Shown: positions 14,154 through 17,789 of the stretch, one piece after another
How the letters are laid out: every line of letters begins with the position of its first letter
Numbering within the stretch: the stretch's first letter is position 1
NCBI GenBank assembly: GCA_038886535.1
Contig: JAVZXS010000005.1
Location: 1-49,532 of the forward strand
From: Candidatus Micrarchaeia archaeon
Lineage (GTDB): Archaea > Micrarchaeota > Micrarchaeia > CABMEP01
DNA length: 49,532 nucleotides
Reading direction: 5' to 3'
Notes under the pieces: generated by a model
The model's database searches: none
What the model was told of the DNA's origin: nothing
Seen by the model: only the letters and a program-made list of their open reading frames with translations
Position numbers and translations under genes: made by a program

Positions 14154-14168
14154 TTTATCTACCCTTAG

Positions 14169-14254
14169 TGCAGGGGGTGGGATTTGAACCCACGTAGCCA
14201 CTACGGCACCAACCCCTGAAGCTGGCGCATTTGACCTGGCTCTGCCACCCCTGC
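14169..14254 (-). tRNA. tRNA-Leu(CAG), intronless, long variable arm, CCA not encoded
   Basis: Reverse complement GCAGGGG...CCAGC-TTCAGGG-GTTGG...GTGGG-TTCAAAT-CCCAC-CCCCTGC-A; acceptor, anticodon and T stems all pair. Confidence 0.95.
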
Positions 14255-14388
14255 AGTTGATTAATCTAAGTAATCGAAGTCGAATAGTGAAACATATATG
14301 CAATTTTAAGTTTAAAATATTATCATTGTCTGGATAAAAGCCGTGTCATTATTTTAGGTGTTTTAAACATCTTTTTTCGCTAGAAAAT

Positions 14389-14407
14389 GAAACATTTATA
14401 TATAAAA
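14389..14407 (+). promoter_or_regulatory. BRE/TATA promoter, probably giving a leaderless mRNA for the PolB-like gene
   Basis: gaaacatttatatataaaa, with the TATA box about 25 nt before ATG 14424. Confidence 0.55.
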
Positions 14408-14423
14408 ATAATGTCAAAATATC

Positions 14424-17400
14424 ATGCATAATAACGATTTGAAAGAGAATAATCATATTATTAGAAATCAATCAATAGATTCGCAAGAGGATGATTCGTT
14501 TTGGAATGATACTCCTTTAGATGAAGAACCTTCTTTCGAGGCAAAGCATAATGAGCTTCATTTATTTTCAGAAGAAGAGGAGAAGAAAAAGATTCAGCCT
14601 TTCTGGTTTGTTAGCTATGTTGGTTTTGAGGAGTACGAGTCAAAAAGGAATCGTCTGATTATGAATTTAAGAAGATGGTCTTTGTCCTCTCCTGAAACTG
14701 TTACTGTTTATATTAATCATCCGATTACTATTTCAACAAGTCCTTTTTATGATTACGATTCGTTATATACTTATCTTGAGAAATTGAACAAATCCATGGA
14801 TAAGACATACAAGATTACATGTTATCTCTCTTATGCAGATAGAGATAAAAAAACAGAATTAGAAAAAAAATTTCCTGATTTTGAATTTGTTATTGACAAT
14901 ATCAAATCATCAGTTGTTAATGCAACGGTCCCATGCGAAAAAAGGACATTGGATAATTTTGAAAAGCTAGGCTTCCAAACAAAAAACATTAACAAGTCGA
15001 TAAGGAGACAGTTGGGCTGGATGTATAAAAAAGTAAAAATTTCAAGCGAACTAGAATACATCTTTTCTAAGATTAAGGAGCTTAATGAATTAGATTCTAT
15101 TTTGATTGAAAAGATCTCTAAATTTTATGGAAAAGATTCAAAACACTATGATAAAATCTTGGTTGCAAAGATAACTAGAGCAGTCAATGATTTTCGGCAT
15201 TTTTATTTAGAGGGCAATAAGATTTCAGATTTCTTAACAGAGAATAGCGGAATATTAAGGGGTAAGCACCCTATCGTATATAGAATTTTTAATTCAAATG
15301 AAAGTTTTGCGAGAGAATTAGAAGAAATTGGAATTAAATTCGGAAGCCTTAGGTTCTCTCTTGATCTTGCTGCAAAATCTTTGAATAACCAGAATTCAGT
15401 AATTTACAATTGGGATAACGAGCAATATGAATTAGTGTTGCAACCTAAAAGCGAACTAAATCCATATGTGAAAGGAGGGACAGAACCCGAAGGAATGCTT
15501 TTGACAGATGAAAGAATTCCATATGTTTGTTGGAAGTCGCTTTCAACATGTTTCATAGACATTGAGAAACCAATGTGGAAGACAGAAGAGGAAAGAAAGA
15601 TAATGCAGGAAATTTCAGAGCTGCAAGCAGAGCTTGCAAATAAGAATTCAACTAGAGATCCATCTGAGATAAACGAAAAAATTCAGGAATTGAGTAAGAA
15701 AATGGTAATGAAAACAAATCAGTCTGGAGATGTGAACCTACTTGAGGACAGGTATAAAGAGCAGATTTCTAGAGTAATGATACATCTAAGAAAAGAAGAC
15801 GGTTCTATGAAACGATTTTATTTCAAGCTCAGAAATACTGCAATCAATGATGAAATAAAAGAGATAAATGGATTCACAGTCCTTTACTTTGACACAGAAT
15901 ATGAATTACTTAATGCAGTGATCAAATTCATCAAGCAGGAAAAACCTTACAGAATTGTAGGCCATGTTATACCTTACGATCTTTCAGAATTAAGAGACAG
16001 CGCAAGAAAGAATAAAACTGAACGTTTCGAAATAGCAGTAAAGAAAAAGGAACCAAGGCTTTGGAGACGTGATTTTTACCAGAAGATATCTCTTGCAGCG
16101 CAGGAAATACTTGATACACATCGTTTGGCTTCTGTTTGGTTCCCATATCTTAAGATGAAACCATTTGATCTTTCGCATAAGCTTGCAGATGTTGCAAATT
16201 TCATATATTTGCAGAAAAAGCGAATGTGCATTAAAACAGTAATGGATACAGAATTTCACAAAATAGCAACGCATAATGAACTTAAAGAATTAGAGATAAT
16301 GGCAATAAATGGAAACAAGGATGCAGAATACAAACTCGACTTTTACTCTACTCACGATATCGATCCATTGATAGAGATATTCGATTTTGAGCCTACACTT
16401 AAGCTTTTGTATAAGGCAGCGGCGATGGCACCCCATGTTCCAATAACAGATGTAGCATTTTCTCCAACTTCAATGAACGAAATATTTCATCTTCGTGAAT
16501 GGAAGGTCCGCCATACTCAGTTGCATTACGGCTACAAACAAAAAAAGAGAGAGGATGAAAGGCAGATTTTCAAAAAGAGACTTAACGAATACATGAAAAG
16601 GCAGTTGATGGATGAGGGAATACCTCAAATAAAGCCGGGATTATATTATGATGCATATATGACATACATTCCATTAGAACTTATGTTGTCATCAACTTTC
16701 TTTCCTTCTCAACCAGAATGGAGTTCATATTTCAAATCATTACATTATGATCCTATAATAAAGATAGCCGAACTTCAATATCCAAAATATTTCATGAGGC
16801 AGAATATACATGTTGACTACTACTTATACAGGAGAGAAATGGACATTTACAGAGAAATTTTGAGGCTACTTAATATATCTAAAGACGAGGCAACGAACCT
16901 GATGCAGAAGTACTATGTAGCTGTTGCAAAGGCAGACGGTACGGCAATTGGAACTCGAAGTAAAAAAGAGTTCGTCAAGCAATCTTTAGTTAGACAGTAT
17001 TATGCTACCTATGAAACTGTTAAGGATAAGTTTAGATCATTTTATATATCATTAAAAACAAAAGACAAAAAGGCAAGCAGAAAGATAAAGAATCACATAA
17101 GAAAAGGAAGCACAAGAAGAGAAGATAATCAGCTTACGTTTAATTTCGTTAATTTCTTTGAAAAAGAAAATAGCGACATAATAAAGCTCTATAACCTTCC
17201 AAGCGATTTAGAGTCCACTTTAGAAGAATCGTCAAAAGAGAAATTGGATAGATTCAAATCACAATTTGAACGTCTTATGAAGATAAATGATAAGATTGTT
17301 TCAATATTAGCCAAGTCTGAATACTCAGATATTACTGATAGGATATCAGCAGAGAATATGGTATTTTTATTCAACCAGTATATGCGTGCAATGCATTACA

Positions 17401-17684
17401 AAGATATGTTCAATGCAGTATATCAGATAAATCCAGAAGGCAAATTCTCTTTCAGAACTTTGATAGACAATGCATATAAAACAATAGGCGAATGGATAAA
17501 AGGTAAAAATTTATATGTTATAGGTGCAAAAGGCGATTACCTTTTCATTAAAGATAAAGATGGAAAAGACATAGATTTCACCGATTCTCCACTAATCCCA
17601 ATAAGGAAATTCGATAAGCTTGATTTGATTGGAGATGAGGAAGATACAGATACATTTTTAGAAGAATTAGAAAATTACGATTAA
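14424..17684 (+). CDS. Divergent family-B DNA polymerase homologue: DEDDy exonuclease acidic residues intact, polymerase site inactivated, no thumb
   Basis: ExoI FIDIEKP, ExoII EYELL..VIKFIKQEKP..IVGHVIPYDL, ExoIII YSTHD. Motif A region KPGLYYDAYMTYIP (Asp to Tyr), motif B KDMFNAVY, motif C VIGAKGDYLFI. The protein ends about 45 aa after motif C. Confidence 0.75.
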   Translation: MHNNDLKENNHIIRNQSIDSQEDDSFWNDTPLDEEPSFEAKHNELHLFSEEEEKKKIQPFWFVSYVGFEEYESKRNRLIMNLRRWSLSSPETVTVYINHPITISTSPFYDYDSLYTYLEKLNKSMDKTYKITCYLSYADRDKKTELEKKFPDFEFVIDNIKSSVVNATVPCEKRTLDNFEKLGFQTKNINKSIRRQLGWMYKKVKISSELEYIFSKIKELNELDSILIEKISKFYGKDSKHYDKILVAKITRAVNDFRHFYLEGNKISDFLTENSGILRGKHPIVYRIFNSNESFARELEEIGIKFGSLRFSLDLAAKSLNNQNSVIYNWDNEQYELVLQPKSELNPYVKGGTEPEGMLLTDERIPYVCWKSLSTCFIDIEKPMWKTEEERKIMQEISELQAELANKNSTRDPSEINEKIQELSKKMVMKTNQSGDVNLLEDRYKEQISRVMIHLRKEDGSMKRFYFKLRNTAINDEIKEINGFTVLYFDTEYELLNAVIKFIKQEKPYRIVGHVIPYDLSELRDSARKNKTERFEIAVKKKEPRLWRRDFYQKISLAAQEILDTHRLASVWFPYLKMKPFDLSHKLADVANFIYLQKKRMCIKTVMDTEFHKIATHNELKELEIMAINGNKDAEYKLDFYSTHDIDPLIEIFDFEPTLKLLYKAAAMAPHVPITDVAFSPTSMNEIFHLREWKVRHTQLHYGYKQKKREDERQIFKKRLNEYMKRQLMDEGIPQIKPGLYYDAYMTYIPLELMLSSTFFPSQPEWSSYFKSLHYDPIIKIAELQYPKYFMRQNIHVDYYLYRREMDIYREILRLLNISKDEATNLMQKYYVAVAKADGTAIGTRSKKEFVKQSLVRQYYATYETVKDKFRSFYISLKTKDKKASRKIKNHIRKGSTRREDNQLTFNFVNFFEKENSDIIKLYNLPSDLESTLEESSKEKLDRFKSQFERLMKINDKIVSILAKSEYSDITDRISAENMVFLFNQYMRAMHYKDMFNAVYQINPEGKFSFRTLIDNAYKTIGEWIKGKNLYVIGAKGDYLFIKDKDGKDIDFTDSPLIPIRKFDKLDLIGDEEDTDTFLEELENYD

Positions 17685-17716: not shown

Positions 17717-17789
17717 TGGGGCCGTCGAGATTTGAACTCGAATCACCAGCTCCCGAAGCTGGCAGCGTACCAGGTTAGCCCACGGCCCC
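17717..17789 (-). tRNA. tRNA-Pro(CGG), intronless, CCA not encoded
   Basis: Reverse complement GGGGCCG...CCAGC-TTCGGGA-GCTGG...TCGAG-TTCAAAT-CTCGA-CGGCCCC-A. Confidence 0.95.

Follow-up and report, generated by a model that had tools for sequence, protein, structure and literature searches.

The DNA considered here (the window) is a stretch of 49,532 nucleotides from Candidatus Micrarchaeia archaeon, positions 1-49,532 of the forward strand of contig JAVZXS010000005.1 in assembly GCA_038886535.1. The subject is the gene at 14424..17684 on the plus strand (stop codon included), whose product, P0001, is 1086 residues long and combines the exonuclease domain of a family B DNA polymerase (PolB) with what appear to be the remnants of a polymerase. 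The open reading frame (ORF), as read from the sequence, has no internal stop. The gene lies between two tRNA genes on the minus strand, tRNA-Leu(CAG) upstream at 14168..14254 and tRNA-Pro(CGG) downstream at 17717..17789, and the tRNA-gene-tRNA arrangement recurs in five of five related loci. An earlier inspection of the letters alone (the sequence-only reading) had described the product as a 'dead polymerase, live exonuclease' derivative of PolB, standing between two tRNAs, with an intact frame and a TATA promoter of its own. The motif strings it quoted are all present in the P0001 translation where it had placed them, its position 17535 being that of D1038. Both tRNAs are there, with no sign that they matter for function.

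Relatives of P0001 were gathered in several alignments. A2 holds 49 full-length relatives that have no thumb (22-84% identity to P0001), A3 eight canonical PolBs from Micrarchaeota genomes, A4 a subgroup of about 830 residues, and A5 15 more distant relatives, 13 of which bear a thumb. Conservation of residues was counted in a joint alignment of 64 sequences, the 49 of A2 and the 15 of A5. Coordinates of features in and around the P0001 gene are on the plus strand unless stated otherwise.

Residues 370-690 (15531..16493) represent a PolB-type DEDDy 3'-5' exonuclease domain, as judged from PF03104 and from hhalign. PF03104 is the sole Pfam match of P0001 (27.2 bits, cut-off 23; E 3.2e-6); a scan of NCBIfam gave no match. 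With hhalign, A2 aligns with A3 from ExoII to ExoIII (97%, E 1.1e-10), and A5 aligns with A3 from ExoI to ExoIII (98.7%, E 2.6e-16). In 73 genomes the A2 profile also cross-matches canonical PolBs at their exonuclease domains, and its matches in the PDB are to PolBs only, at marginal E values of 0.013-0.043. A sequence search of solved structures gave no match for P0001 alone or for alignment A1. By these profile alignments, the exonuclease domain of P0001 is demonstrably homologous to that of canonical PolBs.

The motifs are found in the expected order. ExoI is D379-I-E381 (15558..15566), with D and E invariant in all 64 sequences. ExoII is GHVIPYDL, residues 513-520 (15960..15983), with the catalytic D519 equally invariant. 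ExoIII is YSTHD, Y641 to D645 (16344..16358), where Y and D are again found in 64/64. The complete DEDDy set (D379, E381, D519, Y641 and D645) is thus present and invariant. Two further residues do not vary in the 64 sequences: D564 (16113..16115), an extra Asp in an LDT segment that aligns with the invariant D274 of canonical PolBs, and K613 (16260..16262), a Lys between ExoII and ExoIII. Position 515 in ExoII is Asn in 45 of the 64 and Val in P0001 and 12 other thumbless members (13/49). The substitution of Asn by Val with retention of the Asp had been noted in the sequence-only reading, and conservation of the acidic residues in homologues, which it had proposed as a check, is complete. By its residues, P0001 is a member of the DEDDy (DnaQ-like) 3'-5' exonucleases, and exonuclease activity is predicted.

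What has become of the polymerase half? PF00136 has no match in P0001 even at E 10, none in 54 relatives scanned (taken from 84 other profile matches), and none in P0097, a divergent relative from a sister genus. The canonical PolB of the same genome, P0011, matches PF00136 at E 1.5e-67. A motif A remnant, PGLYYDAYMTYIPLE, is at 16635..16679, where Y748 stands at the place of the catalytic Asp in DFxSLYPS; the segment PGLYYDAYMTYIP begins at residue 738 (16635). In the genome's own PolB, the canonical GIYERIAVFDFRSLYPS is the counterpart of the family consensus GxYxNVxQxYxPLEEWL. Since the Gly spacing of nine residues is equal in the two (G739 to Y748; GIYERIAVFD in the own PolB), Y748 is placed on the catalytic Asp. 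The same register is seen in further alignments, those of P0097 with A2 and with canonical PolBs and that of the C-terminal half of A5 with the canonical one. At this position Tyr is found in 56 of the 64 sequences, and never Asp or Glu.

The motif C remnant, VIGAKGDYLFIK, is at 17517..17552, with K1036, G1037 and D1038 in place of D-T-D. In it, VIGAKGDYLF represents residues 1032-1041, and the block xGDYLF lines up with DTDSIF, in a register that rests on non-significant or indirect alignments. At the position of the first Asp, 37 of the 49 thumbless members have Lys or Arg. The second Asp (D1038) is kept in 44/49 of these, and in 0/15 of the A5 relatives. P0001 ends 45 residues past VIGAKGDYLF. 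Counted from the Tyr column of motif C, 47 residues follow in P0001 and 23-76 in all 49 thumbless members; past motif C there are 164-304 residues in 13 of the 15 A5 sequences and 224 in the own PolB. Because only 47 residues remain, against about 224 in a canonical PolB, P0001 has no thumb. Consistent with this, A2 and A5 align over 704 columns (hhalign 100%, E 2.2e-79), and A2 stops at column 727 of the 885 of A5.

The region between motifs A and C (16680..17516), presumed to contain the fingers and inserts, is expanded, as its spacing relative to the own PolB indicates. Conserved blocks here are LQYPKYF, DYYLYRRE and KDKFRSFY. Motif B is uncertain. The sequence-only reading had put it at KDMFNAVY, residues 993-1000 (17400..17423); the string is present, but it falls on motif B only in a non-significant alignment. 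HMMER and hhalign prefer QSLVRQYYA, residues 853-861 (16980..17006), as the candidate remnant, and this placement is not significant either.

Is the C-terminal half a polymerase palm at all? Its homology to the palm is supported only indirectly, through colinear motifs and thumb-bearing intermediates. The C-terminal halves of A2 and A5 are clearly related (hhalign 99.6%, E 6.5e-25). That of A5 in turn aligns with canonical PolBs over 325 colinear columns (48.9%, E 1.7e-4; reversed control 0.3%), a span that includes motif A, motif C, thumb helices and a YDxxYY block. The C-terminal half of the P0097 clade aligns with the canonical one at 28% (E 6.2e-4; reversed control 0.1%). The language-model neighbours of whole P0001 are all PolB families (0.92-0.95); residues 690-1086 alone give a weak lead to viral PolB fragments (0.88-0.89). 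The losses described in the sequence-only reading, i.e. catalytic Asp to Tyr in motif A, DTD to KGD in motif C and absence of a thumb, are borne out by these comparisons.

The protein has additional segments. An acidic, poorly conserved leader consists of residues 1-58 (14424..14597; net charge -10), and most of the distant relatives do without it, beginning at the segment that matches residue 59 onwards. Residues 59-210 (14598..15053; FWFVS...NRLI..., FQTKN..K..RR) form an N-terminal domain that is common to the whole superfamily and is aligned between A2 and A5, with W61, E69 and Q185 conserved. Going by the motif pattern, it likely corresponds to the N-terminal domain of PolB. Residues 211-369 (15054..15530) are a lineage-variable region before ExoI. 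In all, 378 residues precede ExoI in P0001; the thumbless group has a median of 229 and the own PolB has 154. An insertion of about 55-65 residues after ExoI (residues 383-445, 15570..15758) is typical of the thumbless group: the distance from ExoI to the next strand is 67 residues in P0001 (median of 68 in the thumbless group), whereas A5 has a median of 11 and the own PolB has 18. Motifs A and C are separated by 289 residues in P0001 vs 141 in the own PolB. The C-terminal tail, residues 1062-1086 (17607..17681), is acidic (net charge -9). Large insertions and two acidic termini had been noted in the sequence-only reading, and both are evident.

A motif of the form Qx(1-3)[LMI]F (QGKLF, QLSLF, EQDTLF and others) is found at the C-terminus of 10 of the 18 thumb-bearing relatives (A5 and the P0097 clade), and in 2/49 thumbless members, or 5/49 with a looser pattern. 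The QxxLF-type pattern was a post hoc choice, and the looser one has an internal background of 1.7%. The thumb-bearing tails resemble the PCNA-interacting protein (PIP) boxes that end canonical Micrarchaeota PolBs (NQKGLFQFD, KQSSLSDWM). From this distribution, the thumb-bearing forms could plausibly be tethered to PCNA, whereas such tethering has no support in P0001, where it was dismissed as a candidate.

How widespread is the family? A word-indexed search yielded 10 proteins at 52-100% identity, labelled Micrarchaeota or Micrarchaeia where named, and a genome scan found seven loci, all in Micrarchaeota metagenome-assembled genomes (MAGs). A profile of eight close homologues, run over 1.84 billion representatives, gave 85 proteins at E <= 1e-3, of which 45 at E <= 1e-30. 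One distant A2 member is labelled Pacearchaeota. The family is therefore found in two DPANN phyla, the Micrarchaeota and a Pacearchaeota MAG. Longer, fused forms were searched for and none was found, which is weak evidence. In a tree of the region from the exonuclease to motif A (IQ-TREE, 72 rows, 354 columns, short search), the 49 thumbless sequences form one clade (SH-aLRT, an approximate likelihood-ratio test, 100) that is nested among thumb-bearing ones, and a single loss of the thumb fits this topology.

In a sample of 401 genomes from the phylum, the A2 profile detects full-length copies in the genus of the window only, in 5/5 genomes including that of the window (0/396 others). The other 73 matching genomes, among which one unpublished genome (G197) is counted, show a match only to the exonuclease domain of canonical PolBs of about 800 residues. 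Restriction to one genus was nevertheless rejected. In a sister genus (genome G391), at the matching place in the order arginyl-tRNA synthetase (ArgRS) - major facilitator superfamily (MFS) - tRNA-Pro - nitroreductase - ORF, there is a protein of 814/815 residues, P0097/P0098 (P0097 on contig C52, locus L075:8679-11126, minus strand). It is a hyper-divergent, thumb-bearing member of the family that the A2 profile missed, and absence outside the genus therefore cannot be concluded. P0097 has no Pfam match. Its alignment with A2 is at 88% (E 2.9e-6); that with canonical PolBs (86%, E 4.9e-6) spans 510 columns and extends from exonuclease domain to thumb. The spacing of motifs A and C is near-canonical at 134 residues, the DEDDy set is intact and Tyr is found at motif A. 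The large database contains only three relatives of P0097, and the rest of the phylum sample contains none; the small P0097 clade ends in an invariant EQxTLF. In the tree P0097 is basal on a long branch; it may be an orthologue of P0001 or a replacement of it. A canonical PolB is also present in G391.

The gene is under selection. Values of dN/dS, the ratio of nonsynonymous to synonymous substitution rates, were determined by the Nei-Gojobori method against three relatives (L006, L007 and L008), a fourth being saturated at synonymous sites. The overall value is 0.11-0.12. By parts, it is 0.05-0.07 for the exonuclease, 0.09-0.135 for the C-terminal part and 0.17-0.27 for the N-terminal part, i.e. 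purifying selection acts on all parts of the gene. With an intact frame and a dN/dS of about 0.11, the gene is not a decaying pseudogene, in agreement with the sequence-only reading.

A BRE/TATA-like box, GAAA(C/T)NTTTA(T/A)ATA, is at 14389..14402 and represents a putative promoter. It is found at a fixed distance in six of six relatives, where the rest of the spacer and the flanks have diverged. The conservation supports an archaeal BRE/TATA promoter, in line with the promoter assigned previously, and from it we infer the function. Because its TTTATATA begins 29 nt ahead of the ATG, the mRNA would be leaderless or have a very short leader. The spacer between the gene and tRNA-Leu contains a second block, ATATATGCAATTTTAAGTT TAAAATATTA, at window positions 14295-14322. 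Its TAAAATATTA part is conserved in five of six relatives, and the sixth has the near-identical TAAATTATTA. This block may be the promoter of the minus-strand tRNA-Leu gene.

All relatives examined, down to 54% identity, show the gene order MscS channel - tRNA-Leu - gene - tRNA-Pro - ArgRS. At that level of identity of P0001, the neighbouring genes are still 67-79% identical. The GC content of the gene (0.33-0.34) is the same as that of its surroundings. The P0001 locus has been inherited vertically. Neighbours in the window encode, besides the MscS channel and ArgRS, a histone, an Elp3-like enzyme, a polyprenyl synthase and a beta-CASP RNase, and no integrase or defence genes are found in this neighbourhood.

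More distant relatives have other neighbours. A metagenome scan with A4 gave 41 loci, and 133 neighbouring ORFs were annotated at the 13 loci with the longest flanks. The ribosomal protein gene S6e is the immediate neighbour in 6/13 loci, an aIF5B-type GTPase is nearby in 8/13, with a fragment in a ninth, and aIF2-gamma is nearby in 5/13. PCNA, considered as a neighbouring gene, is found at 0/13 of these loci. A Cas4-like partner was also considered and discarded: a PD-(D/E)XK gene is within 5 kb in 3/13 loci, never adjacent, and none is in the window. Of separate interest is a relative of 962 residues on an 829-kb metagenome contig (L058, 7083-13289), which is 0.9 kb from Cdc6/Orc1 and 3 kb from OapC, a place that is probably next to a replication origin, to go by these genes.

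Searches for viral and defence connections gave no matches: PADLOC had none for P0001 or its neighbours, PHROG none for P0001, viral contigs contained no relatives by the A2 or A4 profiles, and tblastn against phage records returned nothing. A viral or mobile origin was rejected on the lack of matches among viral contigs, phage records and PHROG. The context of P0001 is housekeeping, not defence.

The genome (1.14 Mb, 88% complete) carries a separate canonical PolB and a PolD; a separate intact replicative polymerase was what the sequence-only reading had asked to be confirmed. The canonical PolB, P0011, has 789 residues with DFRSLYPS, YSDTDS and a C-terminal QSSLSDWM. DP2 is present with DP1 just upstream of it, as are PCNA and Rad50. 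DP1 (C1:260142-261650, plus strand) was found by phmmer with two Micrarchaeota DP1 proteins (E 3e-93). A search with PF04042 detects no DP1 in this genome and in 0/6 genomes of its family, and matches 159/401 Micrarchaeota genomes; DP1 is probably very divergent in this family of genomes rather than absent. The finding of DP1 by phmmer ruled out P0001 as a replacement of this proofreading subunit of PolD. As the PF04042 search missed an existing DP1, negatives from family searches need caution here. NurA, NucS and MutS were not found in the genome by family searches, although such a search missed DP1 and the genome is 88% complete. The PCNA gene itself (contig C2, L071:1474-2256, plus strand) is of interest: homology to PF00705 and the N-terminus IFEIVLDDAK... 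begin before the first ATG, GTG or TTG, which suggests a non-standard start codon.

How does P0001 compare with known systems? With the canonical PolB3 type, for which the own PolB serves as reference, it shares the order of parts, the N-terminal domain, ExoI, ExoII and ExoIII with the Asp between them, and colinear remnants of motifs A and C. It differs from canonical PolBs in that PF00136 is not detected, the motif A Asp is Tyr, DTD is KGD, and the thumb and the C-terminal PIP box are missing. Relative to the own PolB, it is longer by about 224 residues ahead of ExoI, by about 50 past ExoI and by about 150 from motif A to motif C. The thumb-bearing DPANN relatives (A5, including P0097) belong to the same superfamily, with invariant exonuclease residues and Tyr at motif A. 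They differ from the thumbless P0001 in having 164-304 residues past motif C (13/15), a QxxLF-type end in 10/18 and no insert after ExoI.

Small stand-alone PolB-type exonucleases (Pfam PF10108, DNA_pol_B_exo2; PHROG 403) are another group for comparison. They likewise have a DEDDy exonuclease and no polymerase site of their own. They consist of the domain alone, of about 200-320 residues, and are often viral, whereas P0001 is chromosomal and keeps the complete N-terminal domain along with a decayed polymerase half of about 400 conserved residues. One example, of 232 residues, is encoded in the same genome (contig C18, L004:1228-1926, plus strand), with matches to PF03104 (E 6e-7) and to PHROG 403, 'DNA polymerase exonuclease subunit' (E 9.8e-21). 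Three small ORFs that lack PHROG matches precede it, and it may be part of a virus or mobile element.

PolB2/Dpo2 (Rogozin et al., 2008, PMC2527604; Makarova et al., 2014, PMC4104785; Kazlauskas et al., 2020, PMC7544198) is, like P0001, an extra paralogue with a single motif C Asp. In PolB2, ExoI lacks conservation and there is no ExoIII (PMC7544198); P0001 has intact exonuclease motifs, whose catalytic residues do not vary in the 64 sequences. A link of PolB2 to arCOG07300 and inactivated RadA-like genes is described (PMC4104785). No RadA-like neighbours are present in the window or among the 133 ORFs of the 13 loci; arCOG07300 has no Pfam model, so it is the RadA part of the linkage that was tested. 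Judged by its motifs, P0001 is not PolB2. Other inactivated PolB modules have been exapted, namely the C-terminal half of Pol epsilon (PMC2669801), poxvirus F12 (PMC4304020) and a Polinton-like PolB fused to a helicase (PMC5499653). These and, on the reading favoured here, P0001 are PolB scaffolds that lack polymerase catalysis and yet are conserved. In Pol epsilon the whole polymerase-exonuclease module is inactivated (PMC7544198), whereas in P0001 the exonuclease is the best-conserved part. The covered text of the literature, which includes PMC7544198, PMC4104785, PMC12680538 and PMC2527604, contains no description of a thumbless PolB family with an intact exonuclease and a dead polymerase; supplements, which could list such sequences, were outside its scope. 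The suggestion that the family is undescribed thus agrees with what is in print, to this extent.

What might P0001 do? With moderate confidence, based on the sequence comparisons, we favour a DEDDy 3'-5' exonuclease that works by itself on the scaffold of a dead polymerase and descends from a family B DNA polymerase. As the nuclease site is perfect, and the key residue for synthesis and the thumb are missing, P0001 most likely trims nucleic-acid ends and does not copy DNA. The N-terminal domain and the decayed palm and fingers would have been retained as a scaffold that holds nucleic acid, probably a DNA 3' end at a duplex junction. Hydrolysis of the 3' end would proceed by a two-metal mechanism at D379, E381, D519 and D645, with Y641 positioning the attacking water, and no DNA synthesis would be expected. 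In replication or repair, a likely job would be to trim 3' ends that are mispaired or damaged or that form flaps. P0001 would then be a housekeeping enzyme across a range of DPANN archaea and not a defence gene. Of the original 'dead polymerase, live exonuclease' proposal, the invariant exonuclease residues, the undetectable PF00136 and the missing thumb uphold the main part, and the accompanying role in defence or sensing is the part that is not supported.

Several points weigh against the exonuclease interpretation. The C-terminal half of A2 compared alone with the canonical one gives 0.4% in hhalign, i.e. there is no direct palm match, although these non-significant alignments still put motifs A and C in register. 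The bridge from A5 to the canonical palm may lean on the thumb, which P0001 is without. The thumbless group keeps E752 (47/49), D798 (47/49) and D1038 (44/49), which a dead polymerase does not explain. The change of Asn to Val in ExoII of the P0001 clade might weaken substrate binding. A pattern search finds no PIP-like motif in the C-terminal tail of P0001. In addition, DNA rather than RNA as the substrate is assumed from ancestry.

A bolder proposal is that the dead palm still recognizes the primer-template junction and passes the 3' end to the exonuclease. P0001 would then act in trans, as an 'extrinsic proofreader' or mismatch-excision enzyme, in archaea where neither MutS nor NucS/EndoMS was detected by family searches, which missed DP1 in one case and here covered a genome that is 88% complete. 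This is possible, but we regard it as unlikely. If true, a family of thumb-bearing members (with a PIP-like tail) and thumbless members (with an insert in the exonuclease domain) would be an unrecognized component of archaeal replication fidelity.

Could P0001 still be a nucleotidyl transferase? A divergent polymerase, or a terminal or translesion extender, might use a rewired site of D1038 with E752 or D798. Each of these residues is kept in at least 44 of the 49 thumbless members, and the C-terminal half is under purifying selection. PolBs with one motif C Asp can be active (PMC7544198). PolB2/Dpo2 and primer-independent PolBs work with such a single Asp. PolB2, formerly called inactivated, has been reported as a translesion extender (PMC8764526). 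However, the motif A position is never acidic in the 64 sequences, A5 keeps D1038 in 0/15 and E752 in 4/15, and there is no thumb, no detectable PF00136 and no significant palm match. Retained synthesis thus seems improbable.

The immediate surroundings raise a different question, that of an RNA substrate. DEDDy nucleases include RNases. A 3'-5' exonuclease similar to RNase D or Rrp6, active in tRNA or rRNA maturation or in RNA turnover and using the polymerase relic as an RNA-binding platform, would suit the translation-gene neighbours in two distant lineages (tRNAs and ArgRS in one; S6e, aIF5B and aIF2-gamma in the other). But unrelated genes are common in housekeeping clusters, and the L058 relative is near Cdc6 and OapC. 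The domain is specifically of the PolB type, whose known substrates are DNA 3' ends, although the sequence itself does not discriminate RNA from DNA. We give an RNA exonuclease a small chance.

A mainly non-catalytic scaffold or regulator of the replisome, comparable to the C-terminal half of Pol epsilon or to the role proposed for PolB2 in 2008, would keep the exonuclease site for binding. Structural roles are known or have been proposed for inactivated PolB paralogues (PMC2527604, PMC7544198), and the large lineage-specific inserts and acidic tails could bind protein. Known scaffold paralogues, however, have lost the exonuclease residues (PMC7544198), and the five catalytic residues, kept in 64/64 at a divergence that goes down to about 22% identity, bear the signature of catalysis; a purely structural role is very improbable. 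A defence or counter-defence nuclease, or a sensor of nucleic acids, directed at mobile elements or host DNA, as the sequence-only reading had suggested, is highly unlikely: the patchy occurrence within Micrarchaeota (full-length matches in one genus of 401 genomes sampled), evolution faster than that of the neighbours (54% vs 67-79% identity) and the tRNA genes on both sides would fit it, but the PADLOC and PHROG searches gave no match, viral contigs and phage records no relatives and the neighbourhood no integrase or defence genes, and synteny is stable, GC is like that of the surroundings, inheritance is vertical and distant relatives lie in a cluster of translation genes.

The known inactivated polymerase paralogues, PolB2 and the C-terminal half of Pol epsilon, either lost the exonuclease as well or proved to be active polymerases, according to the portion of PMC7544198 covered. 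The P0001 family has the opposite selection pattern: the proofreading site is unchanged at about 22% identity, while no recognizable polymerase site is left and one clade has also lost the thumb. If P0001 is a stand-alone or trans-acting exonuclease, it would add a component to archaeal DNA replication and repair. It would also be a natural example of a polymerase converted into a dedicated nuclease.

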